64,000 bases of DNA, taken from NCBI RefSeq assembly GCF_964204645.1, contig NC_134032.1:5046175-5110174 (forward strand). Reading direction: 5' to 3'. This stretch comes from Tubulanus polymorphus (lineage: Eukaryota > Animalia > Nemertea). Of this stretch, positions 1,607 to 37,957 are shown one piece after another; position 1 is the stretch's first letter, and each line of letters starts with the position of its first letter. A program made the translations under genes and the position numbers. The notes beneath the pieces are model-generated. The model was not told where the DNA came from and ran no database searches. It saw nothing but the letters and a program-made list of their open reading frames with translations.

Positions 1607-3513
1607 CTCCTCTGAAGTTTACGACTATTCCGCGTCTCGAGTTAGCTGCTGCAACCGTATCGATTCGCCTAGATTGCATAATTACGAGAGAGTTAGACTT
1701 TGATGTTGATAAGACGTTCTATTGGACTGATAGCACATCGGTGTTGAAATATATTCGTAATGAGGATAAGCGATTTCAAGTGTTCGTTGCTAATAGAGTT
1801 GGCGTTATTCGTGAGCATTCGGAGCCTTCTCAATGGAACTTTGTTGATGGAAAGCTAAATCCTGCTGATGACGCCAGCCGCGGTTTAAGTATCGATGAAA
1901 TGAATCGTGATTGTCGATGGCTGAAAGGTCCTGATTTCTTATGGAAAACTAAGGAATCGTGGCCGACACAACCTGATTTAGGCGTCGTCGAATCGTCGGA
2001 CGTTGAGGTTAAAAGGTCGTCTAAAGCATGCGCGTCGTCGTGTAAACTTGATTTGGACAACGATGTTCTTATGAGCTATTTCGCACTATTCTCGTCTTGG
2101 TCGCGCCTTAAAAAGTCCGTTGCCTTGATATTGCGTTTTAAGCGTAAACTTATGCGTCGTGATCATGGTGATGTTTCTAACGGTCCGATTTCAGTTGGTG
2201 AGCTCCGAGAAGCTGAGAGAGCAATTTTGTCTTACGTTCAAAGGAGAGCGTTTCCAGAAGCTTTCAACGGTTCCACTCTCAAACAATCGTCAATACTCGC
2301 GCTGAGTCCCGTTGAGATTAATAACTTGTTGTGCGTAAGAGGGCGTCTTGGTCGTTCAGAGCTTTCCGAGTCATCGAAACATCCTATAATATTACCGAAG
2401 AATGGTCACATCACTGACTTAATCGTACGGTTCTATCATGATATCTATGCGCATAGAGGTCGTGAGTATACGCTCTCTAAGATTCGCTTGAAGTTTTGGG
2501 TTGTTAATGGTAAATCCGCTGTGTGGAGAACTATATCGAAATGTATAAATTGCCGCAAACGAAACGCAAAACTTTCACAACAGAAGATGTCAGATTTACC
2601 GCCGGATCGCGTCTCTCCTGATAAACCACCATTTTCGTTTGTTGGACTTGATTATTTTGGTCCGTTTCTGGTTAAACGCGGTCGTGTGCGTGAGAAACGT
2701 TATGGATGCATCTTCACTTGCCTTGCAAGTCGCTCCGTTCACTTAGAAGTATGCCATTCCCTGGATACCGACTCCTTTATTTCCGGTCTTAGGCGTTTTA
2801 TCGCGCGGAGGGGTCAGCCGGAGAAGATCAGAAGTGACAACGGTACTAATCTCGTGGGCGGTCAGCGTGAACTGAAAGATGCCATCAATAACTGGAATCA
2901 AGACAAAATCCAGGAGTTCTTGTTGCAAAAGGAGAAAGAATGGGAGTTTACCTTCAAATATGGGAGGTGTTTGGGAAAGACTCATTATATCGATTAGAAG
3001 TGTTTTGTGCGCGATTACGAAAGAACAGGTTCTCGACGATGATAGCTTGTTAACCCTCATGTGTGAGGTCGAAGCCATTGTTAATGGTCGTCCGTTGACG
3101 AGCGTCTCCGATGATCCTACTGACTTGGAACCACTTACTCCAAATCACTTGTTGATTTTGCATTCCGGACCAACATTGCCGCCAGGGAGTTTTTCTCAAC
3201 GCGATTTGTACGTTCGTCGGCGCTGGCGTCAAGTACAATACTTGGCCGATGTTTTTTGGAGAAGATGGGTACGCGAGTACTTACCATTGTTACAAAAAAG
3301 ACAGAAATGGTTCAACCCTCAGAGGAATTTCGTTGAAGGCGATATCGTTCTTGTCGAAGATGATCAGTCGCATCGATCGTCTTGGCTTTTAGGTCGCGTT
3401 ATCGAACCTTATGCCGGAAGTGATAGTTTGATTCGAAGCGTTAAACTTAAAACAAAGTCAACCGAGTTAGTCGACCAGTGAACAAGTGCGTTCTTTTGGA
3501 ATGTATTACTTAG
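1607..3513 (+). pseudogene. pol: BEL/Pao pol: RNase H-like region, HHCC zinc finger, integrase core, C-terminal DUF5641-like domain; frameshifted near 2950 and 3470
   Basis: TIPRLEL, WTDS, NPADDASRG, H-x3-H...C-x2-C, GLDYFGP, SDNGTN, GGVWER, PLTPNH, FWRRWVREYL (ORFs 1534..2997 and 2879..3481). Confidence 0.93.
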
Positions 3514-3648
3514 GGTTTACTAAGTAACTTAGTGTTTACCTATATGATGAACATTAATGTAATTCATGTACCTATTTGAGTGTTTCGTTGTTATATTGTT
3601 GTATATTTGTTTGGTTAAATCACATAAAGTGTTTAACGGTGCCGGGAA

Positions 3649-4044
3649 TGTTGACGCCACGTTTCGGCTCTTGTAGTTTAAAGTTTGTATGGTTACTTTA
3701 GTTCGAAGTTTGTAACTTCATATGTCTGCATTGTGCTGCCACCTATTATTCTTATAATTTTTCGGCTTTTTTACGTCATTCTTGGTAGCCATATTTGAAC
3801 GCAGCTGGTTTTTGGTTTAGCAATATCTTGTCAAAAGGCTCAATTGTTCCGTAAGTTTAATTCAAGATAATTCGTAACTTTATTTATCAGTTGCATGTTA
3901 GAAGTAAGTTTTCTGTATATTGAATCACAAAACTTGTAAAGTTTCATTTCATATTGTAGAAACGTCTTTTCGTCTTGGTCGATATGGTCGAATAAAGTCA
4001 GTTTGGAATATGAGAAACAAAATTCTTGGTTGTCAGTTGCAACA
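3649..4044 (+). repeat. 3' LTR of the BEL/Pao element (~396 bp)
   Basis: Starts TGTTG right after the PPT, ends CAACA, AATAAA at 3991. The partner LTR is not in the window. Confidence 0.75.
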
Positions 4045-5103
4045 TCGGGGTTTAAGTGTTAATGTATGAATCCCCATCAATCATTTTCGGAAGAACCTTC
4101 TCATCATGCAGAAAACGACGTAAAAAGGGGGAAGGGCAAATCATCACCTAATATCGTCAGTGTTAAACACGGCCAAAGAGCTAGACTGTACCACCAAATA
4201 ACAAGCGTCCAAAAGTTCGAACAACTATACAACAAACAAACGTTTATTAATTAGGATATCAGTGTCGCCCCCGGGAGCCAGCATGGGATGAGCCGGGAAT
4301 GCAGATCCTGAAGCCTTGATCTGTAGCTCAGAATTATTATTTCACTGTTGTTTATTAAAGCCGTACTTGATTGAAGGGAACCCAACAACCCGTAGAACAT
4401 TCACATTTTGCAAATATCCAGTCTCACTGTATATACGAAATGAGGATGACGCTAGCCTCCACCTACAAAATCCATCAAATCTCACATGTAAATATACCGC
4501 CACAAAACCCTTCATAGCTCATCGAAATACATCCTGACCCAAGTTGACCTTGGTGCTTGTCTGGTGAATCGCCATTAAGACTGCCATCTCTAAGAATTTT
4601 CAACGAAGGGTACTTTTGGACAGATGGCGTCCAACTGAAACAGTATCGGAGACTCCAACAAACCTCAGCATTTCGAAAGCTGTCTCCGCTCATTTTGGCC
4701 ATTCTGCATATATTGATACTTACCAGAACCTTCCCCCCCCCCCCCAACATTTACCCTGGAACTCAAGTGACAACTTTGCCGTTGATGCTATCGGGGTATA
4801 GCTTCTAGATCTATAAAAAAGTGCTAACTGTTCTAGCTGACTCCATGGGTAAATGTACTTGTTACATCCACCGTGTTTCACAAAGTACTAGTGATCATTT
4901 AGGTCGAGCTGCAGAACATTTTTGAAATTTTAATATGTTGTTTATTAATCCACCATCTGCGCACTCTGTTTATTGTAAGCTATCTACTCTAATCTCTACT
5001 GGTTCCTTCAATATCCCCTCACGGTTGTTGACAATCCCATCTCGGACAACGCCCCACCCATTGTTTTTGTGGGCTTGTCTTGATGACCGAAGATATATAA
5101 CCG

Positions 5104-5236
5104 CTCTCTCTCCCTCTCTCCCTCTCCCCCTCTCTTCCTTTCTTCCTCGCTCCCTCTCTCCCGCTCCCTCTCTCCCTCTCCCTTCTCCCCTTTCCACCCT
5201 CTCCCCTCTCCCTCTCTCCCCCTCTCCCCCTCTCCC
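5104..5236. repeat. Pyrimidine-rich (CT/CCT) simple repeat
   Basis: Almost pure C/T tract; explains the spurious low-complexity ORFs at 4935-5420. Confidence 0.95.
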
Positions 5237-5639
5237 CGCCGACTGGCAGCCATTGTTGTTTGGAAGAATCAGCACTTTTTATACGTTTTTGAACTTTTTG
5301 AGGGAAATTTTGAAGACGCTTTGGTCAATTACCTTGATCTTTCGTATATATTTTAATCCCCCGGGGCCCATAAGCATAACAAAAATTGGGTCAATCAGTC
5401 ACAAGATGGCCGTCCTATGACCTTTTTAGTGGCCAAAATTGTCAATTTTGGCCCGAATTTAGAGTCCTGTAGCTTCCTACTGATTTGCATTTCTCATTGC
5501 AATTGCTGATGGGTATACTTTGGAAAGGGATTTCTTATACCTGAGATAGGTATTTTTGATCAGCGAACTATGACGCAATCGGCGGCCATCTTGGTGTTTT
5601 TGGTACTCATTCGTTGGTGGGAAATAGTTTTTCGACATT

Positions 5640-6121
5640 ATATTCATACCTAAGCATATTTTGTTACCGCAATGAATTAGAAAGTTGTAGATTGTAAGGT
5701 TTTCTATTATTGTGGTGTGTTTCAAGGTCATTAGTTTTTGTATATGGCCACCAGGGGGCGTTGAATAATATAATAGCTTAGTATTTCTATATTATATGTG
5801 TACCAATGCATATTTTGTTACCACAATCAATTGCAAAGTTGTAACTCCTGACATCGCCTATGATTGTGGTCTGTTTTAAGGACATTAGTTATTCTATATG
5901 GTCACAAGGGGGCATTGAATAGTGGAATAACTTATTAATTTTAGTATTACTTTAGTATTTCCTTATTATATTGGTGCCTAGGCATATTTTGTTAACATGA
6001 TCAATTACAAAGTTGTAGTTCATGGCATCTTCTAAGATTGTGGCGAGTTTCAAGGTCATTTGGATTTGAATATGGTCACCAGGGTTCATTGAATTGTAGA
6101 ATAACTTAGTATTTCCACATT
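5640..6121. repeat. ~155-175 bp tandem-unit repeat that is the Polinton insertion target; continues at 20529-20660
   Basis: GCATATTTTGTTA(C/A)C...TTTCAAGGTCATT...TATGGTCACCAGGGG units at about 5654, 5808 and 5983, and again at 20543 after the Polinton. Confidence 0.8.
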
Positions 6122-6355
6122 AGTAATAGGGGTAATGGGCTTTCAGGCCAAAGGTCGAACGGTCGAGCTCATTAAAAAACAAAACATTAAAAGTAATTTA
6201 AAACTATAATATATTTTCATAACCGTGTGCATTTTATATTATAACTAAATATTTATTCTAAGATATTAATAATTTAAATTTTAAAAGCATATTGTATTAA
6301 ATCAATTGGTCGCTCCACTTCGCTACCGCTCCGCGACCAATTGATTTATTTACAA
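6122..6355 (+). repeat. Left TIR
   Basis: Near-perfect reverse complement of 20286-20522; contains the internal stem TAAATCAATTGGTCGC...GCGACCAATTGATTTA. Confidence 0.95.
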
Positions 6356-6384
6356 AATATTTTAAGATTCATGAAGAGGCAAGA

Positions 6385-6711
6385 TTGGCTCGAATAAATG
6401 ATTCTATTTCAGATGGTATTGTCAAATGTTATTCTAAGTTATGTAACCGGTTAATACCAATTAATGATGAAAATAAATTATATAGTGATTTGAAAAATGA
6501 CTACTTAGTTATGACTGAATTACAAAAATGGGTTGGTTATGCTTCATTTCAATTAGGATCGGTTATGACATTAATTTCTACCGGCGTCATAACATTTTCG
6601 AACATCAAACCTATGGAATATAAATCAGGTAAGAACGAAACAGATGTACTACAACCAAACGTCGAAACAGAAAATGAATCAGAACAAAAATTAACTAAAA
6701 TAAATGAGTGA
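6385..6711 (+). CDS. Polinton hypothetical protein, probably 5'-truncated, one hydrophobic segment
   Basis: 108-aa ORF; the reading frame runs back to the TIR junction with no ATG, suggesting a deletion. Confidence 0.5.
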   Translation: MARINDSISDGIVKCYSKLCNRLIPINDENKLYSDLKNDYLVMTELQKWVGYASFQLGSVMTLISTGVITFSNIKPMEYKSGKNETDVLQPNVETENESEQKLTKINE

Positions 6712-6859
6712 TAGCGTTAAGAAAAAGGCTAGATCTGAAAAACAAATTAAATGGGCAAGAGAATTAGGTAAAAGATCTTCAGAATTAAAAAAAGCTAAGA
6801 AAAAGAAATTAACTGATATAAATGAATCACATCATGAATATTATCTGATAACGATGTAG
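6704..6859 (+). CDS. Small basic Polinton protein (MSDSVKKKARSEKQIKWARELGKRS...), truncated by deletion
   Basis: TAAATG start overlapping the previous ORF; Lys/Arg-rich; runs into integrase sequence near 6840. Confidence 0.5.
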   Translation: MSDSVKKKARSEKQIKWARELGKRSSELKKAKKKKLTDINESHHEYYLITM

Positions 6860-7470
6860 ATTATTTTTCAACACATTCAGATAAAAAAGCATCTATTATA
6901 GAAAGATTTGATAAAACATTGAAAACTAGAATGTGGAAATATTTTACTGCTAATGAAACATATAAATATATCGACGTGATAGATGATTAAGTGAAAGGTT
7001 ATAATAATTCTAAACATAGTTCTATAAATATGAAACCTATACAAGCTAGAAAAGAAGATAATTCGGAAATAGTTTGGAATAATTTATATGGAGCGTTTGT
7101 TACACATGATTTCGGAGAACCTAAATTTAAAATAGGACAACACGTAAGAATATCTAAATATAGAAAAACATTTTATAAAGGTTATACTCCAAATTTTACT
7201 GAAGAAATATTCAAGATTAAAAAGATAATATTAACTAAACCATTTGTTTATAAACTAGAAGATCTAAAAGATGAAGAAATATTAGGTTATTTCTATGAAC
7301 GAGAATTATCATTTGTACCAAACCCAGATGAAATAGAATACAAAATAGAAAAAGTATTGAAAACAAAAACTCTTAAAGGAAAAAAGTATTCTTTTGTGAA
7401 ATATAAAGGATACGATGATAAATTTAATGAATGGATTTTATCTAGTAAAATTAAAAGAATAAATGAATAA
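6841..7470 (+). pseudogene. int: Retroviral-like integrase, C-terminal half with chromodomain; N-terminus deleted, internal stop near 6988
   Basis: KASIIERFDKTLKTRMWKYF, YNNSKHSSINMKP, FKIGQHVRIS, KGYTPNFTEEIF, GYFYEREL, chromodomain YKIEKVL...FVKYKGYDDKFNEWI. Confidence 0.92.
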
Positions 7471-8074
7471 AGATTTATTTATATTTGAACCGCATAATAT
7501 GTTAGTTACTGGTGTAACAAACTGTGGTAAAACACATTTCATATTAGATTTGTTAGAAACTATTTATAAGAATCATTTTGATAATATAATATTATTCTGC
7601 CCTACTTATGAAATGAATAAAACATATAATAGAGATATAGTTAAGATAAAAAAGTTTATTATATTAGATCCTAAAACAGTAAAAGAAAATTTAGATAATT
7701 GTATAAAAATAGCAATTGATACTTATAAAGGATCAAATACATTATTCATTGTAGATGATTGCGCAAATTTACATGATTCAAAAGTGAGAGAAAGTGAGTT
7801 ATGTTATTCAGCTTTCTCTGGGAGACATTTCGGGATAACAACATGGGTTTTAAATCAAAAATATAATTCAATTGTTAAAGACTTTAGGGAGAATATAAGA
7901 TTTCTAGTTTTATTTTATAACAAAGATAAAAAATCTATGCAACAATCATTGGAAGAAAATCAAATTATACCTACTGAATTACATGATGAATATATGAATA
8001 AATTAAAGAATAATAAAGGTTCAAAATTATTACTGAGATTACAATTTCCCTATGAATATAAATTTATAAAATAA
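7463..8074 (+). CDS. A32-like / FtsK-HerA DNA packaging ATPase
   Basis: Walker A GVTNCGKT, Walker B LFIVDD, SGRH motif and downstream Q; intact 203 aa. Confidence 0.92.
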   Translation: MNKDLFIFEPHNMLVTGVTNCGKTHFILDLLETIYKNHFDNIILFCPTYEMNKTYNRDIVKIKKFIILDPKTVKENLDNCIKIAIDTYKGSNTLFIVDDCANLHDSKVRESELCYSAFSGRHFGITTWVLNQKYNSIVKDFRENIRFLVLFYNKDKKSMQQSLEENQIIPTELHDEYMNKLKNNKGSKLLLRLQFPYEYKFIK

Positions 8075-8473
8075 CTATTTGTATACCTATGTATTAGATA
8101 CCCTAATACCTGATACCCTATTAGATACCCTAATACCTGATACCCTATTAGATACCTTAAATACTTAAAACCCCCTTTTTTTAAATAAATATTATTTATA
8201 CAATTTTCAACCAATTTATTTTTATTTTTTTCAACTAATATATGAATAAGTTTGAAAATAATAAAGGTTATTTATTATTACTGAGGTTTCAATTTCCATA
8301 TGAATATCAGTTTATAAAATAAGATATTTTATGTATTAGATTGTATTAGATTGTATTGGATATGTATTAGATACCTTAAATACCTTAAATACTTAAAACC
8401 CCCTTTTTTATTTACTATTATTTTATACAATTTTCAACCAATATTATTATTTGTGTTAAATATAATTAATATT

Positions 8474-9398
8474 TTAATCACTTTCACTATCAGACCCTAA
8501 CAATTTATTCAAATTCTCTACCGAATTTTCTTCTTCAAATTCTTTATTATTTTTATACTTTTTCATCCTTTCTACCGCATCATCAATAGTTTCTTCTTTA
8601 TGTTTCATAGAATTATATTTTAACTTTATTATCAATATCTGTAACTGTATCACCATGTGGGCGCCGTATGGCACCATTTTCATTATTATCTTTATTAGTG
8701 TTTGCTCCTAATATTTCATTTAAAGTGTTTGGTTTTAATATTTCATTAGCATCGGTTAGATCTAATTCATCTTTATTAGGCGTTGCTAATAATAAATCTT
8801 TATATAATTCTCTACCATTTACTTTTTGATTTGAAACAAACTTTGTAACATATCTAAATGGGTGTTCTATGAATTCTCTTATACCAACACGATCTATTAC
8901 ATTAGTAATATGTGAATTTGTATTCATATGTTTATTCCAATTTGATGGAACGTTTGAATATTCACTTTTACAATATCCACAATAATTTCTATTTTCACTA
9001 ACATTTAATATTATTTCATTATTTGATGTAGAAGGTATTACATTATTAGATGTAGAGGGTATTACATTATTAGATGTAGAAGGTATTACATTATTAGATG
9101 TAGTAGGTATTACATTATTAGATGTAGTAGGTATTACATTATTAGATGTAGTAGGTATTACATTATTAGATGTAGAAGGTATTGCATTATTAGATGTAGA
9201 AGGTATTACATTATTATCAATTACATTACTTAAATTATCAACAACACCACTTTTATTATTATCGATTTCTATCAGTTAAGTTTTATAAATTTTGAAAATA
9301 GGATCAAATATCAAAGCTATATTACAAGGTATTACATAATATAAACCATTATTATTTTCATGTGTATCGATGTATGGAATATGTTTATATACTTCCAT
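8474..9398 (-). pseudogene. Zinc-finger protein with 8-aa repeats (frameshifted)
   Basis: ATG at 9398; NNVIP(S/T)TS repeats; C2H2-like CGYCKSEYSNVPSNWNKHMNTNSH in frame with ORF 8613..8927. Confidence 0.65.
9027..9216. repeat. 24-bp coding minisatellite (7-8 copies)
   Basis: (GAA/GTA)GGTATTACATTATTAGATGTA repeated. Confidence 0.95.
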
Positions 9399-9430
9399 TT
9401 ATTATATAAATTTTTATTAAAGTTAAAATT

Positions 9431-10672
9431 CTAATACATAACACTATTTAATTGAGAATTTACAATATTTAATTGCGCGTCAGATATAATATAAATGTGC
9501 ATTTTAACATTTTTGATTCCTTTATTCATTGTCATGAATAATTGTATTCCATCTTTAGTGTTCTGTAATTTTTTTCCAGAACCATGTAATGAATTATCCT
9601 CTGTTGTTCTAAAATCTAACCATAATGCGTATTTATTACCGGTATAATAATCAATTTGATTAATATTACAATTTTCAGATGATTTTACTTTTTCATTCAT
9701 AAAATGTTTTCTAATTTCTGGCCATTGATCTATCATTCTCATTCCTTGACGAAATATTTTATTTGCTATTCCTTCGATAGTTATTTCTACTTTTGTTATT
9801 TCAGGATTATAATAATTATCAACATTTATTGCGCCATTAGTATATGTTGCAATGCTAAAAAAATATTAATATACCTTTAATAGATCTTCTTGGGAAGTTA
9901 ATATTCTCATTAATTATTTCATCATTTGCATTAATAGTTACAGTTTTAAATTTATCAATATAATCATATAATAATGAAAATCCTTGATTGTATTTAGTTT
10001 GAATTATACTTGAAATATTTTCATCAGTTACTGTATCATATTCTAAACATATATTCGATAATTTATAACTCATATTTTTATTAACGCTGGATATTACAAT
10101 TTCATTTACAGGAGCAAATGCAATTTCGAATATAACATCTTCTTGAATTGCGTATTTATATAAAGGTGCATTGTTATTTATCAATTCAAAGTCTAATGGA
10201 ATTTTATATTTGCTTCCATATATACTTTTTATCAATTTATCTACAGCATTAGTTAATATTGCATTATGTGCTTCTGATCTTAACTTATTTTGGTTTTCTG
10301 ATTGGATTCCTTGAAATATCATATTATTTCTATTTTCTTTAGTAAACCATAAATCTTTATAACCATAAATAAATTATAATCATCTAATGAGAAAACTGCT
10401 TCTGGTCCAATCTTTATTGTTAATTTCTTAATCAAATATCTCCCAACATTATCAACAACATAATTATTACCGATTACTTTTATATCGGCTGATAAATAAA
10501 TACTATTTGGAACATAAAAAGTATTTTGTGTTAATCGAGGGATTCTAACGTATAAAGTTTCATCGGGATTAATATTAGAAGGGTTATGAGTAATTATATG
10601 ATGTGATCTTTCTGCTTTAATAGCATTAGATATTCTATGATTCTTAGAAGGATTGATATAACTCCCACTCAT
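9431..10672 (-). pseudogene. Major capsid protein (double jelly-roll, hexon-like), split by frameshifts
   Basis: Three consecutive ORFs (10319..10672, 9855..10322, 9431..9742) totalling ~410 aa; HNPSNINPDETLYVRIP, SYKLSNICLEYD, PRRSIKGIL, LWLDFRT..DNSLHGSG resemble Polinton capsid proteins; size and context fit. Confidence 0.78.
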
Positions 10673-10692
10673 TTGTTCAACAAAAAAATTAA

Positions 10693-12116
10693 TTATTTAT
10701 TTTTTATCATGTTTACTAGCCCAAAAATAATAGCACTTACAACTGTAGTTAAAAATAAAATAATATGTTCAGCAGCAAAGTTAAAAATGTTTCCTGCAGA
10801 TTTCAATATAAAACCAACAATTGATGCAATAATTCCTGGTAATGCTGCAGCAGATTTTTTAGATAGTTCCCATAAATATTTTGCTAATTTCTTTAAACCA
10901 TCTTTAACTTTATCTTGTATAGAATTATTATCTGGGGGTTTATCCGGTTTATTGGGAGTAGGAGTAGATTTCAAAGCATTTGATATTGCTAAAACTATTG
11001 TTGTGAATACCATAGTTACAGATGTTAGAATTGAAAGAATTGTTATTCCTTCTAATTTAGATAATAGTCTTATTCTATCTATCAATGATATTTCAGAATT
11101 TGGTTTTATCAACAAATCTTTAAAAACATGTTTTAATCGTTTAAAATTATTACCATATTCTTTTAATAATATATCTCTTTCACCTTTCAGTACTTCTAAA
11201 TTATCTTTTAAATTATCAATTTCTTTTTCTCAACGTAATTCTTTTTGCCTATATTCCATTTCACCAATTAATTGATGGTCTAAATCATACTTTAATTGTT
11301 CTATCTCTTTATTTTTATCAGTTAATTCTTTTTCTAAAGTACTAATTTTAATATCTCTTTTACTTTTATTATGTGCAATTTTATCAGCTTCATTTCTTAT
11401 ACTAATAATTTCTCTAATTGCTTCATCAGAAAATATATTTAAATCTTCTAATTCTTGATCTGTTGCATCAAGTAATCCATTTGGTAAAAGTTTTTCAGTT
11501 TGAACTCTTTTTGATTTAATTTTACTAGTTTTGGAATTATCAGCTTCTTTAGGAATTTTTTTTTGGTATTAAATTTTCATTAATTATCTTAAAAACTTTA
11601 GCATTTCTTTGTTTAAATTCTCTTCTATTATCAATTATCTCTTTTTCTGTAACATAAGTTATAACATCATTAATGATTTTATTAATGATTCTATCTGGTT
11701 TTAATAAAATAAAAGTTGATTGTGTTATTATTTTATCGTTACTTTTAAGATTTGAAATCTTAAAATAATAGTTGCCTTTCAATTTCCAATAATAATCGCC
11801 ATTTAAATATTTCAAATCTTCTACTAAATAATCCATACCTTTATTTGTTATATTGAAACCAGATCTTTTTAACATTGATTTAAAATCACTAGTAATTTCA
11901 TTATATTTAAATTTTTTTCTGTTTATTCTGGTACTTCATTTTCAATACTTATCTTTGAACGTGTTTTATCAATAAATTCAGGTGTAGTTAAATTAGAATT
12001 ACGTCCTGGCTCATTACCGCCATTAAGACTTATTTCACTAAAATCAGGTGGTGGTTCATCACTTATACCAGGTTCACCTAAGGACCCAATGGAAAATCTT
12101 CTACACTTTCTTCCAT
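10693..12116 (-). pseudogene. Coiled-coil protein with C-terminal hydrophobic/amphipathic helices (putative virion membrane protein)
   Basis: ATG at 12116; fragments 11549..11875 and 10693..11115; GITILSILTSVTMVFTTIVLAI and AAALPGIIASIVGFIL segments. Confidence 0.65.
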
Positions 12117-12131
12117 TTACGTAATAAAAAA

Positions 12132-13433
12132 TTAAAATTTAAAATATAATATTCCTCCTATAACAATTCCTATACAGGTTAAAGCTAATTTAGTATTTTC
12201 ATGGGATTTATTATCATCATTTAGTTTAATTATATCATGTTGAATAATATCAGTTTTTATATCTTCTGATGTATTGTAATCTTTTATTTGAGAATCATTA
12301 TTTAATTTAATATTATTAGTTTTAGTTTCTGTTGATTGAATGTGTTTTTTATTTTTTTCACCTTCCATTAATTTTGGAGCAGTAATAATCTTTTTATTTA
12401 TATCATTCAATCCAAATGAATTATTTATTGTTGCAGTTTTAATTAGATTATTATAACCAATTATATTTCCCATCTTTAATACTAAATCATTAGAAATAAT
12501 GAATAGATTAGGGCCTATACAATAATTTAATCTAATATGTGATTTATCTAAATAATTTTGATATCTTACAATGTTTTCTGGAATAGATCTATTTTTATCA
12601 TTATGAATGGAATCTTCAAATAATACTTTAAATTGTTTCTGCGCATCGAATGAAGTGTTATCATTTCCAATTATTGGGGATCTTGTTTCAACTTGCGCAC
12701 CTAAAATACATATCAAATAAGTTCTAATAGATTGATTTATTCTTTGTATTCCGGCTTTAGTAAAACCTTCACTATTTTCTAAAATTAAATTAACCCAACC
12801 ATTATTGTTTTGTTGTTGTATATTATTATAATATTTTGGTAATTCATTCCAATTTAGTGTTCTTATATCTGAATTTGTCATTATTTTTCCAAATTCTGTA
12901 GTATACAATATTCCTAATCCACCCATTGTTCCAATTTTTGCTCTAAAATCTTTATTTGAATTAATATTAAATTCATTACATATTTTATAAAACTTAGAAA
13001 ATTAATATTATTATTCAATTCTTTAAAATATTTTAAACCTGGTAAAGGACATTCTAATTCATCAAGTATGAAATCTAAAAAGTGATAACATCAATGGTAA
13101 ACTTGGTTTGTTTAAATGATCATTCCAACTAATTCCACATCCTGTTGTTGCGCAATAAACAGCAAAATTCAATTGGTTCTGTCAATACTTCATTTTAGAT
13201 CTTAATAACCATTGTTTTGCCTCATTTAAATTTTTAAAATTAATTTCATAAACATTGAATATATTTTCCATCTTTACATGAAAATTATTACTTTCAGTAA
13301 CATAAATATATAAATCAAATAATGAATTTAAAACTTCATTTCTATATGTAATATCTTTATTAAAATCTATTGCTGGAATATTATATTTAATTGATTTATT
13401 ATATTGGAAAGCTTTTGGAAAACTATCTGCCAT
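12132..13433 (-). pseudogene. Polinton protein with C-terminal membrane anchor, frameshifted
   Basis: ORFs 13182..13433 and 12132..12926 linked by NQLNFAVYCATTGCGIS; ends LALTCIGIVIGGILYFKF. Confidence 0.65.
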
Positions 13434-13449
13434 TTATATAACTAAAAAA

Positions 13450-13884
13450 TTAATAATTTATTAATTCTTTTAATAATTTATCTTGTTCTTCAACTGTTAT
13501 ATGGCCATTTAAACTTATTATATATTCTAGTGTATTCTTAAATTTATTAATTTCTTTCATATTAGTTTTAATTTTTTCTTTATTACTTTTTATATTAAAT
13601 TTTGAACTGATACCAGTTAAAACACTTGAACTTAATCCTAATACACCAATTGATATAGCTAAAGGTGTTAATGGACTGAATATTGCTAAAAATGTTATTA
13701 CAGAACTTATTGTAACCGAACAACTAATAATAAGATATTATATAATTTTAGATTTTGAATATTTTTTCTTTTTTATCTTTAAGTCACTTTCAAATTCTAA
13801 TATTTGTTTTTCTAAATATGTTTTTAATTTAGTTTTATTTATATCATGAGGAATAATGTCAATATTATCAACTTTATCTTCCAT
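13450..13884 (-). pseudogene. Two-TM membrane protein with flanking coiled coils (not in the ORF track; disrupted)
   Basis: MEDKVDNIDIIPHD...SVTISSVITFLAIFSPLTPLAISIGVLGLSSSVLTGIS...HITVEEQDKIIKELINY read by hand. Confidence 0.6.
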
Positions 13885-13903
13885 TTATTTAGCAAAAAAA
13901 TTA

Positions 13904-14326
13904 CTAATTAGTAAACTTATAAGCAACAAATATAACAATAACAGTTCCACCTAAAATCCAAATTATTTCATATTTCTTCTGTTCATTACTTGGGGTATAA
14001 TAATCTGATATTGTAGGTTTATGTAGATGTAATTTTTCTTTATTGGTTACCGCGTTATAGAAACTCATTGCATCATCGACTGATTGAAAATCTCTATGTG
14101 AAATCTTCTGATCATATAATTCCTTGTTAATATAATCCATATAGTTTTGTCGTTTTTCTCTATATTCTTCTGCTGCTTTATTGTATTTCTCTAATGCTAA
14201 GTTATGTCTTTTTTGTTCTGTTAATGATCCATTTTTATCAATATGTTTAAATAAATAACCGCCACCAGTAAATGCTAAAGCGTTAACAATTGCCGATTCT
14301 ATAACAGTTATAACTGCAGAAGCCAT
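13904..14326 (-). CDS. Polinton protein with hydrophobic N- and C-termini
   Basis: Intact 140 aa; AIVNALAFTGGGYLF, EQKRHNLALEK, C-terminal TM. Confidence 0.75.
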   Translation of the reverse strand: MASAVITVIESAIVNALAFTGGGYLFKHIDKNGSLTEQKRHNLALEKYNKAAEEYREKRQNYMDYINKELYDQKISHRDFQSVDDAMSFYNAVTNKEKLHLHKPTISDYYTPSNEQKKYEIIWILGGTVIVIFVAYKFTN

Positions 14327-14350
14327 TTATTTAGTAAAATAATTACGCAT

Positions 14351-14572
14351 TTATATAGGAGGAATATATTTTTGTTTTTCCAAATAATCAATAGTTAAAT
14401 TAGATAAAGTAACTGCTAATGTTAATTTTAAAATATCATTTATATCAAATCTATCAACATTAACACTTCCCATTTTGAATACTTTTTTTAATACCATTGA
14501 ATAACCAACAGTTCCAACTGATAGTAATGCGCCATTATATAATCCAGTTATTATCCACTTATTATCACTCAT
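14351..14572 (-). CDS. Small hydrophobic Polinton protein
   Basis: Intact 73 aa, two hydrophobic helices, TAAATG start. Confidence 0.7.
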   Translation of the reverse strand: MSDNKWIITGLYNGALLSVGTVGYSMVLKKVFKMGSVNVDRFDINDILKLTLAVTLSNLTIDYLEKQKYIPPI

Positions 14573-14913
14573 TTATTTATCAAAAAATTACTATCTTCAT
14601 AATATTTAGTTATCTTATTTATGATTAATTCAACATTTATTTCATTACCACTTTTATGATTATCATATATTTTGGTTAATATGTTTTTAATATTATCAAT
14701 AATTCCATCTTCATTTAATTCATAATATTCTAAAGGTGTTTTAATTAAATCAATTACTTTTTCTATACTATAACTTTCTTTATTAATCATTGATGCATTG
14801 TTAAATAATTTACTTTTTATATCAGTAATTACATCATTTAGTTTAATTCTCATTTCTTTACCATGTTTAAAATCAAACCCAAAACATATACTCGGTCCAA
14901 CAGTTATATTCAT
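14569..14913 (-). CDS. Hypothetical Polinton protein
   Basis: Intact 114 aa, TAAATG start, overlaps the next gene. Confidence 0.65.
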   Translation of the reverse strand: MNITVGPSICFGFDFKHGKEMRIKLNDVITDIKSKLFNNASMINKESYSIEKVIDLIKTPLEYYELNEDGIIDNIKNILTKIYDNHKSGNEINVELIINKITKYYEDSNFLINK

Positions 14914-14929
14914 TTATATAGTAAAAAAA

Positions 14930-15691
14930 TTACTCTCTACATCTTATAACTAATTCATAAATTACAGGGAAATTATTTAAATCAATTAAGTGCCCATTAT
15001 GATTTCTAATTTCTAATCTAATATTATTAAAACGAGGAATGCATGGTTTGAAATCACATTCTGTTAAATTAAAATTTATTTGCGTTCCAAATTCTTTAAC
15101 ATTCTTCAATGGTAAAATGTTTAATAAATCAGAATTACAAGTTATATCTTTAGTTGCTTCGAATGTTTTTGTAGGATCGATTAAATTGCAATAAATATAA
15201 AAATGTGTGTAAGGTATTAAGTTTGGTGTAACATCATCAATATTTTTAAAAGATCTATCTGGAAGAATTCCTAATAGTTTAGCTATATGTTTTTTTACCA
15301 TAAATTTATGTTTTTCACTATTAGACAACCTTATCTTTATTCTATCAGAACTATCACTTTTTAAAAATCTAATAATAAACCCAGAACTACTACCTAATTT
15401 GTGCCAGGCTTTTCTATTAATTTCTTGTGCTAATGTATCTAACTTATATAACCCCGGTTTTAAATATATATAGGACCATTCATTTTTACCTTAATCAAAA
15501 ATTAAAAAGGCTCTATGTTCAATAGTTTTATTCGTTATATTATAAAAAGAATTACATAAAGTTATATTTACTAATTTTAAATCAACACAATTCTTAAATT
15601 CTCTATCTAATTGAACTAATAAATTATGTGATTTATAATTTGTAAGCCTTCTAGAATCAACAAATATTCTGTATTCTTTTAATTCTACCAT
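14930..15691 (-). pseudogene. Minor capsid protein (penton, single jelly-roll), disrupted
   Basis: N-terminal IFVDS...NSFYNI, PG-Y motif, FYIYCNLI, DLLNILP, C-terminal IRLEIRNHNGHLIDLN typical of Polinton/PLV pentons. Confidence 0.8.
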
Positions 15692-15699
15692 TTATTTTA

Positions 15700-16053
15700 C
15701 ATATTTTCTTATTCGAAATCTATTTCATGGTGCCCTTTTCATTCTTACCTTTGTATACGAAATAGAAATCACCAGAACATAATTCTTCAAGATCTTCACT
15801 TGATAATCTATGAAATCTATCCGGTAAATATGTTCTGAATTTATATGTATTTCCTTTTAATCCTTCATATTCTAAGTGTATAACTAATTTATCTCCATAT
15901 TACTGTATCAATATTTGTAATTAGATATTTCTTATGGATTATTAATTCTTTTAACTTCTTAAATTTATAATCTACTGATTTGACATTTGAAGTATCTTTT
16001 ATTCTATCTAGAAATAATTTGTTGTTTTTACTGTGCGCTTGTTTACTCTCCAT
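15700..16053 (-). pseudogene. Small beta-rich protein, possible OB-fold ssDNA-binding protein
   Basis: MESKQAHSK...FKKLKEL...KYLITNI...YGDKLVIHL...RTYLPDRF read by hand; one frameshift; fold is inferred. Confidence 0.45.
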
Positions 16054-16082
16054 TTATAATACATATTTTTATTAAAATTTGA

Positions 16083-19000
16083 TTAACACGTTAGAATTCT
16101 TTTCATTATCTCGTTCTCTTTTGTTTCTTCTCTTTTAAATTTTAAGTATTCATCTAAATTACAACCATAAGCAACTGTATGAATTCCATCATCTAAAATA
16201 TATCTTTTATCATCAAATGGGTTTAGACTTATCTTCTCAATTTCTTCAATAAACATTTCATGATCTTCAGATCTTCATGAATTGTTTAGCAATGATAATA
16301 ACAAAGTTCCAGGGAAATTTAAGGATGAATTAGGTGGTGGAGAAATGATAGAGTTCATAGGTATTAGATCTTTCATGTTTTATATGAATACATTTTAGAT
16401 CTAATACCTATGAACTCTATCATTTCTCCCCCACCTAATTCATCCTTAAACTTCCCTGGAACTTTGTTATTATCATTGCTAAACAATTCATGATCTTTAG
16501 GATAATTACTAAAATCAAAATGATGTTTTAATGTTTTTAAATCATCAGTTATGTTATCAGTTTTTATCTTTAATATGTAACTGTCGGTATCAAAATATAA
16601 TATTTCTATATGTTTTTCTCCAAAAAGTGGTTGTAATACATTATAATAGAATTCATACATTAGTAATTTTGATAATTCTAAAACTGAAGCGCCAACATAG
16701 ATTGGTTTATTAAATTTCATTGATGTTCTTCTCATCTTAACTGCAGCTAAATTTTCATCAAATATTCTGTTACCAATGAACTTAGGATATGATTGTAAAT
16801 GTCTAATTCTTTTACCATTACTAACTAACTCAATATCATTTCTATTTCTAATATTTTCACAAGTCTTACCATAGAATGCATTATTCATTAACTTGAAGAA
16901 ATCTTTCTCGAAATCAGTTTTAGCTTCAGTTCTCTGTTTGGTGTTAAAATCTATATATTTTTCTAACCACTTAGATTGACTAAATGAAATATATCTATGT
17001 ACTTTTTTTAGAACCATTCCTTGTTTTAGATAAAACTTTAACATTCTATAATGTACTACATAATTATATTTATCTTCTTGAGTTACCATTAACTTTTCTG
17101 TATGAATATGATTTTCGGGTTTAATTCTTTTTTGATAATTTGATAATTCATCATGAGTTACAGTTTTATGTTCGGGACAGTAAGCTAGATTTCTAGATTT
17201 AAATTTTTTATCTTCAGGATATTCCAAGTCTACAACAAAGAAGTAACCAGTATCTGAATCATCTGCAATATCTAGAATTCTTTTCTTCCAATCAAATTTA
17301 TCATTATTTTCATTCTGTAAAACTTCAGTTAATTCAAATACTCCATAAGGTTGTGGTTCCATCATTGCCCAACCATACAAATTATTTGCATCTATATATA
17401 ATAACTTATATCCAGGGTTATATTTACATTTACATTGAAATATCTATCACCTAATACACCTGAAACTCCTCCTCTTATAGAATTTTCAAATAATAATAAT
17501 TGATCTATATTTGTTAACAAATCCATTTTTATATCTGTAAATTTTAATCCACAATCCCATGTTAAACCTGGGCTAGAATAACAATGACAAGGATCAATAT
17601 TAAAATATTTTAGGTTTACATCTCTAAACCTTTCAAATATATCGGTTAATAATAATACATCTGATTTTAGATATAAATCTACTAATTGCCCATGATTTTC
17701 TATTTTCTATGTTAAAATCATTATGTGATTTATAGAAAGAATATGGAATTGCTCCTTTATATCTCATTAATTGAAAATCATCATTATTTGGATAGTGTTG
17801 TTTTAATATTTTTAATTCATCATCAACTAATGATTTTGATAAGTTATCTAATGAACTATTTAAAAACCTATATGAATCTATAATCTTAGGCAACCAAATT
17901 GGAATGATATATAATTCTCAGATGTTTTAGCTAACATTCTAAATTTATAAGTTGGTATTCTATCTTTTGATCTATTTGAATTTAATCTTTCTATTTCGTT
18001 ATTAATTTCTTCTATTTTATGGCATAACTGTTTGATGAATAAATGTGCATCATATCCTGATAGATTATGAAATATAACTGGTACAAAGTTAATTTTCTTA
18101 GCTTGTAAGTTACAATTCTCATGTGCGGCGCCTCTAAACTTTCCATTCAAATGATCATGGTCTCTTACTTTTTTATCTTTATAATTAAATATCTTTGCAC
18201 AATAATAACATTTATCTGCAAACTCAAATGCTTCTTTATCTTCTTCTGTCATTATAATTTCTATATTTGTATTCAATAATTTACTAAATCTTATTTCATA
18301 TTCAATTAATAAGTCACAAAAATGATTGATAACAATTTCATTTCTATAATGATAATATTCACTTTCAATTAGTTCTGGATAATCAGATTTAATATATAAC
18401 CCGAAAGCAGCAGCTGATTGATGAATCTTTTTGATAGTATTTGTTTTTGGTGGTTCATCTGAAAAATCATTTTCATTAGAATTTAATTTCTTTCTTTTAT
18501 AATATATTTCTTTTCTATCTCGATCAGTTAATTCTTTATTTAGTGATTCAAAATCTCCATATATTACAAATGGTACTTTGTTTTTGTAATCATATTTTTT
18601 GAATTCTAATATTTTATCTTTTTCATTTGGTAAAACTAATTTTCAATAATCATGATTTTCACATAATTGTTTATGATTTAATAATGTACTTTCATTACTG
18701 AATCTATGTAAACATTTTCTACAAAGATATATTTTATGGTGATCATTTTCTGATTTAAAAAATAAATCGATTTGTTTAATCCACATATAATGATTCTCAT
18801 AATATAGTATATCTATAACATCATTTGAATCATAATCTTTTGATAGATATAAAGGTTCTAATGTATAATGTTTTATGTTGTTACCTTTTGTATTTGGTAA
18901 TTTGATTAAATCAAATACATTTATTCTTAAATTATTATCTCTTTCTATTTTTGGGATGTTTTTAATTATAACAGGATACTTATCTATCTTATAGTTATTT

Positions 19001-20007
19001 TCAAATTGTTTATAATTTGTTAATCTATAAGTATGTTTATTATAATCTTCAACTGGATGTAAACAACTTATTATAGCCCATAGAAAACATTTATCATCTT
19101 CATTTTGTACATTTATTACAGCATTAGTTTTAAATGGCAGTTTAATATAACTTGAGGCTTCAATATCTGGTTTTTTATAATATGATACATTATTTTCATC
19201 AATTGGTTTTGATTTAGTTAACTTGTTATATTTTGTGTTATAAACATGTAAAGTCATAAATATTGTTTCATCAAATATTAAACCAGATCCTTCAAAATAT
19301 TTCTCTTCTATTTTAGTTTTCACTTCATTATAACATTTATCTAATTTATCATCTACATGTTGTTTAGATATAATATGTTGTGAATGAGAATTAATATTAT
19401 ATATTGGTTTATCTTCAGATTTTATAAACTTTACTTTAACTGATATACTAATTTTAGGGTATTCAACATCTGTAATTATTTTTATAATATTTTTCATATT
19501 TTCTAAATGTTTTTTATTTTCTTCTAATGTTTTTCCTTTATGAAATTTAAACTCAATAGCTGCTGGGCCAATATCACTTTTAAATGCTTCGGTTATCTCT
19601 ATATCTTTTTTATTATCCAATGAATTAATATAATTTCTTACATCTTCCATGTATGGTCTTTTATTGTTTAATTTATTTTTTATGCTTTTAATTGTCTTCT
19701 GTTTCTTATCATTATCTTTATCAAAATAATCTTCACCTAAAATATCATTATTCTTATTTCTAATATGACTTTTAGATTTTAAATGTTCATTATAATATCT
19801 TTTATCACTGAATGATTGATTACATGTATCACATTTGTATGTTTCTTTTTCATTCTTTAATTCATCTAATTTAGTTTCTAATATATCATCTTTATATTCT
19901 AGTTTCAATTTTTTCTCTAAATGTGTTTTAGTTTTATTGTGTCTTGATTTTTGGGATTTATCTATATTGATATTACATGTTGGGCAGTAGTACTTATTTG
20001 CTTCCAT
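16083..20007 (-). pseudogene. polB: Protein-primed family B DNA polymerase with N-terminal Zn fingers, OTU-like Cys/His region and endonuclease VII-like insert
   Basis: DANNLYGWAM, KLMNNAFYGK, YFDTDS, GKFKDE, DDKRY; exonuclease HNLSGYDAH; RDHDHLNGKFRGAAHENCN; several frameshifts and a deletion near 17705. Confidence 0.96.
16275..16493. repeat. 97-bp inverted duplication inside polB
   Basis: 16275-16371 is the reverse complement of 16397-16493 (2 mismatches seen), 25-nt spacer. Confidence 0.92.
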
Positions 20008-20285
20008 TTTAATACTAAATTTTTTATTAAAATTGATTTTAGAAGTTCAATGATTTATATCATGTATTATTTCAATCACACTTTACTAACACTTTTAATG
20101 TTTAAACATCTAACTCATACAAATATGAATATTGAAATAATGTTGTAAATATATACTTTTATATTGAATAATCTGTCAATTTAAATGTTTAAAACTATAA
20201 TATATTTTCATAACCGTGTGTATTTCAGTTGAATAATAGAATAATAATTATTATTAAAATATATTTGATTATATGAATTTGTGTA

Positions 20286-20522
20286 TTGTAAATAAATCAA
20301 TTGGTCGCGGAGCGGAGCGGTAGCGAAGTGGAGCGACCAATTGATTTAATACAATATGCTTTTAAAATTTAAATTATTAATATCTTAGAATAAATATTTA
20401 GTTATAATATAAAATGCACACGGTTATGAAAATATATTATAGTTTTAAATTACTTTTAATATTTGTTTTTAATGAGCTCGACCGTTCGACCTTTGGCCTG
20501 AAAGCCCATTACCCCTATTACT
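20286..20522 (-). repeat. Right TIR
   Basis: Reverse complement of 6122-6355; followed by TSD CACATT. Confidence 0.95.
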
Positions 20523-20717
20523 CACATTAAATTGGTAACGAGGCATATTTTGTTATCACAATCAATTACAAAATCGTAGCATATGACATGTTCTATGATT
20601 GTGGTAAGTTTCAAGGTCTTTGGTTTTTGTATATGGTCACCAGGGGCGTTGAATATTGAAATTGTTAGATTGTTGAGCATTTGAAACCACTTCCCAAGTG
20701 GGCATGGTGACCCTGGA

Positions 20718-21499: not shown

Positions 21500-22619
21500 G
21501 TCCCTGGACCCCTAGTTAAGCATGGTGATAATACAGTATCATAAATAAATTCTTATTTGTTGATTGTATGTCCGCGTATGTTCGGTTTCAAAGCTGAATC
21601 ATATTTGACGTTTACACAGTGGTTGCATATTAGGTTCGAATCTGTCAATGGATTTTATTCTATGTATCGGTATTATTTCAATTTACTACAATTCCAATCA
21701 TTCTGAATGGCTTTGCAGAAAACCCGTCATCACTGCTTAGCAGCTATATTTATATTTTGTATTGCACACATGTAACGTCATAAATATTATTCAAATATTA
21801 AACCAGATCCTATACCAGGGCATATAGTCATACAGATCATTCATTAAAGCATTATCCATTCTCCAAACTCAACGTAGCTGAATTTTGAAAGAGGGCCTCT
21901 TTAAAATTTATATGAGCTCTTTCGCGAATATCTGATCGCAAAAATATTGGTTTTGAAACGCCAATCAGAAAGCACAGACTCCTCTATGATTGGCTTAGCC
22001 GCAGAAATCAGCAGGTGTTCACGTGGACCCGCGGTATCGTCTACCGTTTTACTCCCGGGTTTTATTTTAAGATCTAAAATTGTATTTCAAGATCGATTTC
22101 TGTGAAAGCTTTTAGTTGATTTGGTTTTTGGGAGGAATATTTTTATTAGCGCTTCAGAAAATATCATTGAACATCGTTGAAAGCCTGGGAAAAATTGCTT
22201 TTTCTCAAATCGGATAGATGACCTTGATATGCTAATAAGCCATGTGCTCAAACTACAAATTCAATCAAATTTATTCTGCAAAAAAAAATATCAAATCCAA
22301 TTCAATTTTACTTTATTGAACAAATGAAAACATCAAATCCAATTCAATTTTGTTTTAATGAGAAAATTTCAGAAAATTCAATTCTATTCCGCATTAAAAT
22401 CAATAAGACCAAGGGAAAAGATTTATCTGAGGTATTTGTTCTTGCCCGATCCAGTCGCTGTCTGTGCTACTTTTGTATTATACGATTGTATTGTGTAAGT
22501 TATTAGATATTGACTCTGAGCTGGGAGTGCATTTTGACAAATTTAACCCATAGAATGCATCACCATTTGCCATTTGATGAAAAGCTGACAGGCTGGCCAT
22601 AGTGCACCTTGGGCTCTTG

Positions 22620-22914
22620 TATATTGGTTTATTTTCAGATTTTATAAATCTAACGTTATCAGATATACTAATTGTGGATATTCTACGTCTGTTATTATTT
22701 TTAAAATATTGTTCATATTCTCTAAATGTTTTTTGTTTTCTTCTAATGTTTTGCCTTTTAAATCTAAACAATTTAATAGCAGCTGGTCCAATATCACTTT
22801 TAAATGCTTCGGTTATTTCGATATCTTTTTTATCATCTAATGAATTAATATAATTTCTAACATCTTCCATGTATGGTCTTTTATTGTTGAATTTATTTTT
22901 TATTCCTTTAATTA
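22620..22914 (-). pseudogene. Relic of the Polinton polB N-terminal region
   Basis: NNKRPYMEDVRNYINSLDDKKDIEITEAFKSDIGPAAI matches 19400-19695; a ~30-bp further relic lies at 21779-21811. Confidence 0.88.
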
Positions 22915-37000: not shown

Positions 37001-37559
37001 CTTATTTTAGGATATTCAACATCAGTTATTATTTTATTATTTCTTTCATATTTTCTAAATGTTTTTTATTTTCTTCTAATGTTTTTCCTTTATGAAATTT
37101 AAACTCGATAGCTGCTGGGCCAATATCACTTTTAAATGCTTCGGTTATCTCTATATCTTTTTTATTATCCAATAAATTAATACATTTTCTTACATCTTCC
37201 ATGTATGGTCTTTTATTGTTTAATTTATTTTTTATGCTTTTAATTGTCTTCTGTTTCTTATCATTATCTTTATCAAAATAATCTTCACCTAAAATATCAT
37301 TATTCTTATTTCTAATATGACTTTTAGATTTTAAATGTTCATTATAATATCTTTTATCACTGAATGATTGATTACATGTATCACATTTGTATGTTTCTTT
37401 TTCATTCTTTAATTCATCTAATTTAGTTTCTAATATATCATCTTCATATTCTAATTTCAATTTATTCTCTAAATGTGTTTTAGTTTTATTGTGTCTTGAT
37501 TTTTGGGATTTATCTATATTGATATTACATGTTGGACAGTAGTACTTATTTGCTTCCAT
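34068..37559 (-). pseudogene. polB: pPolB copy C, truncated at the DTD motif
   Basis: ORFs 37029..37559, 36125..36346, 34921..35715, 34670..34855 and 34056..34574 are collinear with copy B. Confidence 0.95.
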
Positions 37560-37769
37560 TTTAATACTAAATTTTTTTTAAAATTGATTTTAGAAGTTCA
37601 ATGATTTATATTATGTATTATTTCAATCACACTTTACTAACACTTTTAATGTTTAAAAATCTAACTCACACAAATATAAATATTGAAATAATGTTGTAAA
37701 TATATCTATATATCTATTCTATAAGAGCTTACACTTTTACATGTTATTCATGTATATGATTATTTTAAG

Positions 37770-37957
37770 AGTAATAGGGATAATAGTCTTTCAGGTTTAA
37801 GGTTGAAGGGGCGAGTGAGTAAAAAATGAAAATAACAATAATTTACAGTTGAATTAGGAGTGTGCGCGACTAATTCAACTGTAAATTATTGTTATTTTCA
37901 TTTTTTACGAGCTCGACCCTTCGACCTTTGGCCTGAAAGCCTATTATCCCTATTACT
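37770..37957 (+). repeat. 188-nt imperfect terminal fold-back (hairpin)
   Basis: AGTAATAGGGATAATAG...CTATTATCCCTATTACT arms; 39-bp perfect inner stem; loop GAGTGTGCGCGA. Confidence 0.95.

Follow-up and report, generated by a model that had tools for sequence, protein, structure and literature searches.

The genome of the nemertean Tubulanus polymorphus contains a decayed 14.4-kb Maverick/Polinton that raises the question of which machinery transcribes its genes. The element lies at 6122-20522 of a stretch of 64,000 nucleotides (assembly GCF_964204645.1, contig NC_134032.1, positions 5,046,175 to 5,110,174 of the forward strand; called the window for simplicity). No RNA polymerase gene was seen in it, nor a gene for a pox RNA polymerase subunit in the related loci, and its genes start at TAAATG placed behind a run of either T or A. 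We propose, with a probability of about 0.5, that these genes, as those of a satellite-type Maverick lineage, are transcribed not by the host nucleus but by a co-infecting pox-like virus through its post-replicative RNA polymerase, the A-run serving as an intermediate-type and the T-run as a late-type promoter. The proposal is built on the occurrence of two forms of sequence with fixed spacing, on their spread within one Maverick clade and on their absence from outgroup Mavericks. An original prediction, made from the letters of the window alone, had taken the A-run sites for a second promoter class that marks replication and regulatory genes in a two-stage cascade; the cascade is the weaker part of the argument and, as set out below, we infer it only in altered form.

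An A-rich motif at three gene starts of the element

The 14.4-kb element contains exactly three copies of the pattern TTTAATAAAAA-N9-TAAA, all of them on the minus strand and at gene starts (ATGs 20007, 16053 and 9398, i.e. the starts of the DNA polymerase gene polB, of a gene for a putative single-stranded DNA-binding protein (SSB) and of a Zn-finger/repeat gene; Table 1). Positions and the 9-nt spacer before TAAA are those originally predicted. The predicted identity over 12 nt applies to 20007 and 16053, where TTTTAATAAAAA is exact, but not to 9398, which begins with C, so that the word common to all three is the 11-mer. Dinucleotide-shuffled sequences contained 0.01 occurrences on average, and three were reached in 0/300 shuffles of the element and 0/100 shuffles of the whole window, in a test that is post hoc because the pattern was defined from the same three sites. 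A fourth, independent strict occurrence was found at the penton start of a related locus (L001), and none at 1,518 non-start ATGs. The polB start of copy C, a partial copy of the element at 34069-37957, had been described as a near-identical variant (37559); the site is indeed similar, but it lacks the T of the motif and hence any AATAAA and, belonging to a 95% identical copy, does not count as independent support. The penton gene of a further relative (L002) has the A-form word upstream of its start in the opposite orientation (positions 146-156).

Within-species variation was inspected in reads over 15670-16100. No site varying in at least 20% of the reads was found inside the SSB 12-mer or the penton promoter, compared to 29 varying places per 345 coding bases, the promoter positions being too few for significance. 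A length-preserving indel pair in the spacer may stem from cross-mapped reads of the polB promoter. A reading of the motif as a hairpin was considered and rejected: the polB site is an imperfect palindrome, but the folding z-scores of eight start regions were only -1.8 to +0.1. This reading fits poorly, as does that of a poly(A) signal discussed below.

TAAATG starts in related and outgroup Mavericks

Relatives were retrieved in one metagenome scan with the 140-aa conserved Maverick gene of the element, which gave 80 of 130 confirmed loci, five of them close (66-76%) and 75 at about 40%. In a tree of this gene (66 proteins) the window element groups with the loci L001-L005 in a clade with 100/100 support; the placement of L072, on a long branch, is uncertain. 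Gene starts were curated by homology (n = 51; 13 from the window, 35 from L001-L005 and 3 from L072, with the 5'-truncated window ATG 6398 excluded), and 48 of the 51 read TAA(A)ATG, compared to 845 of 9,120 first ATGs (9.3%) in shuffled sequence. An unsupervised count over open reading frames (ORFs) of at least 100 aa gave TAA(A)ATG for 13/14 in L001, 0/16 in L016 and 0/9 in L204. Outgroup Mavericks begin the same 140-aa gene with a Kozak purine at -3 in 66/67 (of 73 loci with a usable start).

The signal is kept at higher GC content, in 3/3 starts of L072 (44% GC) and 7/8 of L205 (38% GC). The latter (positions 1-9034) came from a second scan with polB as the query and is the sole one of 17 polB-related viral contigs to have TAAATG at 7/8 ORFs of at least 100 aa; in the remaining ones it precedes 0-4 of up to 18 long ORFs, mostly as A-rich starts. 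L205 is a distantly related Maverick (polB 39% identical) whose integrase ORF appears by eye to have a protease-like N-terminus, and its TAAATG pattern may be either of independent origin or an older trait. From these counts we regard TAAATG as a lineage-specific trait and not as an effect of composition.

Base -13, counted from the ATG, separates the two forms: it is T in 40 and A in 7 of the 48 TAA(A)ATG starts. A T-run was found at 31/48 TAAATG starts and at 17/122 non-start TAA(A)ATG (p = 2e-10; this test and that of the loose A class below used an earlier start list, of which two starts have since been corrected). The claim of poxvirus-like post-replicative start signals at the genes of the element is thus supported, in two forms that differ at -13. 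In L001, a deoxynucleoside kinase (dNK) gene stands head-to-head with a Zn-finger ORF (L001:10340-11483; Pfam dNK, E = 1.7e-31), and the 72-nt gap between them holds a palindromic A/T core serving both starts; a comparison assigned this Zn-finger ORF neither to polB nor to the 9398 gene.

These data bear on transcription by the RNA polymerase II of the host (hereafter Pol II), in which the gene upstream would have AATAAA as its poly(A) signal, the T-run would act as a downstream U-rich element or as a terminator, and TAA-ATG would provide translational coupling in a compact genome. Two of the three window sites do lie about 10 nt past a co-directional stop (intergenic gaps of 29 and 32 nt), many T-runs follow an upstream stop closely, and T-runs are also present in other AT-rich elements. 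However, polB has no co-directional gene upstream, as the original prediction had argued, and neither have the divergent dNK and Zn-finger genes of L001; elsewhere, too, the poly(A) signal explains little. TAA is the stop of the upstream gene in only 2/40 starts with a known upstream stop, and T at -3 breaks the Kozak rule that the outgroup keeps. AATAAA is moreover common in the coding strands of the clade (150 in 28.3 kb versus 147 expected; 10 inside polB), so that one copy is uninformative. Avoidance of AATAAA, tried as a test of nuclear transcription, does not discriminate: the word is not depleted in the clade, but neither is it significantly depleted in control transposon ORFs (6 versus 7.5 expected). 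If TATAAA overlapping the ATG were read as a TATA box, the established geometry of Pol II would place the start of transcription downstream of the ATG. Host transcription of this kind is therefore considered unlikely.

Correspondence with poxvirus intermediate and late promoters

Vaccinia late promoters consist of TAAAT(G) with a conserved T at the tenth base upstream, and intermediate promoters lack this T and are A-rich upstream (PMC11980589; this and the other PMC-numbered sources, as well as 10.1101/2022.07.28.501842, were available in part). The intermediate core is a consensus-free AT stretch from -26 to -13, read by its shape and followed by a 12-bp spacer and TAAA at -1 to +3 (PMC12917281). 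Both types have counterparts in the clade. The late features are TAAATG at the start codon (the 48 of 51 starts) and T at the tenth base upstream (the 40 of 48); the intermediate ones, i.e. a TAAA initiator without T at the tenth base and an A-rich stretch followed by T, are present at the three window sites and the L001 penton. If the T of TAAA is counted as -1, the A-form extends from -22 to -11 and thus falls for the most part within the -26 to -13 core, whose boundary is not defined by sequence, the A-run reaching 2 nt into the spacer; this position is compatible with a vaccinia intermediate core, not diagnostic of it. The TAAAAT at polB equals the vaccinia G8R intermediate initiator as quoted in PMC12722222. 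In sum, the likeness to vaccinia intermediate and late promoters (PMC11980589, PMC12917281, PMC5294985) comprises the TAAA(T) initiator fused to the ATG, the late T-run, the T-less A-rich core and TAAAAT, whereas vaccinia differs in its 12-bp spacer and lack of a core consensus from the element, where an identical 11-mer ends 9 nt before TAAA. A further difference is that vaccinia replication genes are early and the starts of the element are without an early-type core: the pox early core AAAAWTGAAA was seen inside coding sequence only (1 in the element, 4 in L001). Depletion of the pox early terminator T5NT (13 versus 26 expected) was discarded as a criterion, as A6 runs are equally depleted and the effect is not specific.

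In the proposed mechanism, the element would reach the cytoplasmic virus factory after excision or virion entry. There, initiation by the helper polymerase would take place on the A residues of TAAA, and slippage would add a poly(A) leader like those of vaccinia and of yeast virus-like elements. With such a leader the mRNA would no longer contain the anti-Kozak T at -3, and this mode of transcription would explain why T at -3 and dense internal AATAAA are tolerated. A-form genes, which in the lineage of the window are the polB-SSB-penton block, the Zn-finger gene and perhaps the ATPase gene, would be switched on first, and T-form genes once late factors appear. A satellite entering a virus factory cannot use the early machinery packaged in the virion. 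An intermediate-type promoter would therefore be the earliest available to it, which would suit polB. We consider helper-type transcription of the element reasonably probable; provided that it takes place, a distinct, earlier role of the A-form would in turn have fairly good odds.

The strict identity of the 11-mer would also suit a sequence-specific factor, either encoded by the element or acting in trans (the Zn-finger protein, or a TBP/TFIIB-like protein of another Polinton), that works with the host polymerase and without a helper. Zn-finger ORFs are present, and other Polintons are noted to have TBP-like genes (legend in PMC8502044). Neither the window element nor L001, both of which are incomplete, showed a TBP/TFIIB-like ORF, and such a factor would leave unexplained why the initiator is fused to the ATG with T at -3. 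We consider this arrangement unlikely.

Promoter form and gene function

In the window, A at -13 was found at the polB, SSB-like and Zn-finger starts (3/3) and at 2/9 of the other TAA(A)ATG starts, those of penton and ATPase (p = 0.045, post hoc). As a rule that the A-form marks replication and regulatory genes, the original prediction does not hold. The A-forms on penton and ATPase contradict a division into replication and virion genes, and in L001 the strict motif is on the penton gene, none of the SSB-like, dNK, Zn-finger and integrase starts (0/4) having A at -13, with the T-form on the SSB-like, kinase and integrase genes. The penton start is of the T-form in L003 and ambiguous in L002. 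Absence of the motif in orthologues had been named as an outcome that would speak against the prediction, and it is partly observed, in the T-form of the L001 SSB-like homologue. The comparison is small: it includes no polB start of a close relative, and the L001 protein, 39% identical to that of the window, is the only SSB-like homologue. A cascade that tracks function is thus not borne out in L001, the one informative relative. In vaccinia, the polymerase E9L and the SSB I3L are early genes according to the partly available sources, and the scaffold D13L and the packaging ATPase A32L are intermediate ones, so A-forms on penton and ATPase are compatible with an intermediate-type role. The best reading is that the A or T form would be a labile setting of timing or strength and not a replication-versus-virion code, its assignment differing among relatives. 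The polB of L205 has an A-rich core 12 nt before TAAATG.

Several points weigh against transcription by a pox-like helper through two promoter classes. Outside the window, 0/4 non-virion starts have A at -13 compared to 2/32 others (p = 1; pooled with the window, p = 0.053), and the polB start of L203 bears a T-run. The loose A class is not enriched over background TAAATG (8/48 versus 10/122, p = 0.16), the strict word alone being enriched. Upstream T-runs are also found in related elements without strict TAAATG (L212, L213, L217). An identical 11-mer is not a vaccinia trait, given the shape-read core of its intermediate promoters. TAAA also fits the generic asfarvirus TA(+1)NA initiator, and in asfarviruses a T-rich stretch lies upstream of the TANA/TATA initiators (PMC7163114, PMC5294985); the helper might thus belong to either the pox-like or the asfar-like viruses, although TAAATG fits poxviruses best. 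No helper virus was found: of about 250 viral-contig loci with the A-form pattern, the 120 examined were scattered and unrelated, 11 of them having ATGs open for at least 80 aa, none of this family except one dNK match. Scans of viral contigs with the ATPase, an ATPase alignment and the capsid gave no match, and a scan with an alignment of the 140-aa gene gave one spurious match each in viral and genome contigs. A look for RNA runs containing the element found none, and a run tried as a possible RNA source yielded four short pieces, which favour neither side. Finally, it is from sequence that we infer start sites, poly(A) leaders and expression timing, and the timing and helper dependence put forward in the original prediction have the same footing.

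The A-to-T junction, which varies continuously from -13 to -21, likewise weighs against two classes and is what would be expected of a single pox-like promoter class with a loose A/T-rich core, its A-run word having spread locally by duplication or conversion and carrying no timing information. Accordingly, the promoters of window SSB, window penton and L001 penton have a common TATGT at the start of the spacer and adjoin each other; the same gene switches form between relatives (the SSB-like one is A in the window but T in L001, and the penton is A in both of these but T in L003); and the vaccinia core itself is read without a consensus. A single class leaves aside, however, that the A-forms keep A at -13 and the fixed 9-nt spacer at unlinked genes (9398, 16053 and 20007) and in L001, whose penton is only about 41% identical, that they lack exactly the T which defines vaccinia late promoters, and that both polB starts with TAAA directly at the ATG (window and L205) are A-rich. 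We regard the single class as a serious though not a likely alternative.

Relation to known elements

With Mavericks/Polintons (adintoviruses; PMC8502044) the element and its relatives have in common terminal inverted repeats, a 6-bp target-site duplication, an rve integrase with chromodomain, the A32 ATPase, the penton, a putative double-jelly-roll capsid and a long putative protein-primed DNA polymerase (pPolB) with an endonuclease-VII-like domain. This clade differs in its TAAATG starts with fixed upstream runs, where outgroup Mavericks have Kozak-type starts. The word 'promoter' occurs neither in the available part of PMC8502044 nor in 10.64898/2026.10.13.758929, and 10.1101/2025.04.19.649669 contributed nothing to the subject.

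Virophages and PgVV-14T use helper promoters, and in PgVV the early motif precedes its polymerase gene (10.1101/2022.07.28.501842; PMC11464507). The element resembles the virophages Sputnik and mavirus and PgVV-14T, small DNA viruses that integrate or live as satellites, lack an RNA polymerase and bear promoter motifs of the helper; theirs are Mimiviridae-type motifs in protists, whereas those of the element are pox-type and belong to an animal Maverick, whose helper dependence is a proposal. Polinton-like viruses (PLVs) co-purify with entomopoxviruses and have been proposed as poxvirus hyperparasites, one lineage being a divergent Maverick branch (PMC11296320). They differ from the present element in their source, insect occlusion bodies, and in that those with pPolB have no rve integrase; 'promoter' occurs 0 times in the available text and supplement of that study. 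Yeast virus-like elements have slippage-made poly(A) leaders (PMC6211774); the pGKL elements among them are likewise AT-rich, linear, of pPolB type and with a TAAAN initiator, but supply an RNA polymerase and a capping enzyme of their own, have an upstream conserved sequence (UCS) core related to pox early promoters, and lack capsid and integrase. A literature search, whose coverage excluded most subscription journals and preprint supplements, found no paper on pox-type promoters in Mavericks.

The element, its genes and its surroundings

The element was identified as a Maverick/Polinton by its terminal inverted repeats and target-site duplication and by a retroviral-type integrase, an A32 ATPase and a penton (Table 1). 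The putative polB label is based on family-B motifs and on 39-48% identity of the product to ORFs of 1,250-1,300 aa; a Pfam search of the polB ORFs gave no polymerase match. The SSB-like label has weak structural support from predicted models (Foldseek matches to OB-fold SSBs, E = 1e-3 to 1e-2; Atlas lead to phi29 SSB, 0.87). The predicted structure of the L001 penton orthologue matches the mavirus penton (E = 5.8e-9), and the L001 integrase gave a Pfam rve match (E = 1.5e-10). The putative major capsid has a weak Capsid_N match only (E = 0.011), with no such match for L001. The Zn-finger label refers to a CxxC...H...H string located after a stop, and no Pfam match was obtained for the 9398 gene. 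An ORF for an adenain-type cysteine protease was noticed neither in the window copy nor in L001, no search having been aimed at the protease.

Table 1. Positions of the element, its genes and candidate promoters in the window.
Feature	Position	Strand	Remarks
Maverick/Polinton element	6122..20522	.	23.7% GC vs 36-39% in flanks; 6-bp target duplication CACATT on both sides
Left terminal inverted repeat	6122..6355	+	~235 nt, 96% to right arm
Right terminal inverted repeat	20286..20522	-	partner of left arm
Integrase-chromodomain remnant	6856..7470	+	70% to L001 rve integrase; 5' part missing
A32-type packaging ATPase	7463..8074	+	overlaps integrase end; Pox_A32 E = 3.9e-11
ATPase start	at 7463	+	TAAATG, A at -13
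Zn-finger/repeat gene, broken	8474..9398	-	24-nt tandem repeat 9012-9227; CxxC/H string
Zn-finger/repeat gene, A-form promoter candidate	9396..9422	-	CTTTAATAAAAA-N9-TAAATG; 32 nt past capsid stop
Putative major capsid gene	9431..10672	-	in three frames; 67-74% to L001 415-aa ORF
T-run upstream of major capsid gene	10670..10690	-	window copy without TAA before ATG
485-aa gene, broken	10693-12116	-	
T-form start of 485-aa gene	12114..12134	-	
442-aa gene, broken	12132-13433	-	
T-form start of 442-aa gene	13431..13451	-	
T-form start of 144-aa gene	13882..13902	-	
140-aa conserved Maverick gene	13904-14326	-	query used to fetch relatives
T-form start of 140-aa gene	14324..14344	-	
T-form start of 73-aa gene	14570..14590	-	
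T-form (late-like) start of 114-aa gene	14911..14931	-	AATTTTTTT-N6-TAAATG
Penton (minor capsid) gene	14930..15691	-	internal stop
Penton start, degenerate A-form	15689..15713	-	AATAAGAAAA-N9-TAAATG; virion gene with A-form
SSB-like gene (predicted OB-fold)	15706..16053	-	frameshifted; 63-67% to P0116
SSB-like gene, A-form promoter candidate	16051..16077	-	29 nt past polB stop
Putative protein-primed DNA polymerase gene (polB)	16083..20007	-	split into several ORFs
polB, A-form promoter candidate	20005..20032	-	TTTTAATAAAAA-N9-TAAAATG; no co-directional gene upstream
Copy C polB start	37557..37583	-	without T of motif; in 95% identical partial copy

Two internal duplications were observed, an inverted one of the polB 3' region at 16275-16493 (107-nt arms, 94%), which breaks the polB gene, and one of the ATPase 3' end and the region downstream at 7989-8452 (248-nt spacing, 77%). 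The terminal repeat region is itself partly palindromic (20188-20449), with a small GC-rich hairpin near 20300-20345. Read depth was about 600-1,000 in most bins over 6100-20600 (one DNA run, 1,934 million letters), many of the reads being 80-95% identical, which suggests hundreds of genomic copies in several subfamilies.

Elsewhere in the window, short hairpin elements resembling miniature inverted-repeat transposable elements lie at 1337-1608 and 37768-37957 and consist of two Maverick termini back to back; the first is located where an ORF begins (1534-3481) that by eye resembles a retrotransposon integrase. Further short polB fragments, more diverged (85-88%), are found at 21750-22913. The region 47451-63862 presumably holds, judged from motifs, a DNA-transposon-like gene remnant (47451-49898), a Helitron-like helicase region with a 54-nt coding repeat (52137-58960), a PC4-like ORF at 62364 and a further polB-like fragment at 63230.

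Implications for animal Mavericks

The two-form, pox-like promoter grammar across an animal Maverick clade is a new form of the known mimicry of helper promoters. It bears on the open question whether Mavericks in animals act autonomously in the nucleus or rely on larger viruses: since TAAATG has replaced Kozak starts throughout the clade and regardless of GC content, helper dependence can be tested with short promoter reporters, and TAAATG provides a simple sequence flag that sorts Mavericks into host-transcribed and helper-transcribed lineages. Tentatively, and with more doubt than confidence, we suggest that the members of this clade, probably present in hundreds of copies, might be integrated satellites of a pox-like virus that use its intermediate and late stages, with their polymerase timed ahead of most virion genes. 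If this is true, the promoters of these Mavericks would predict that such a helper exists and what its transcription grammar looks like, pox-like viruses would occur in hosts from which they have not yet been described, and a virophage-style defence in animals would be possible.

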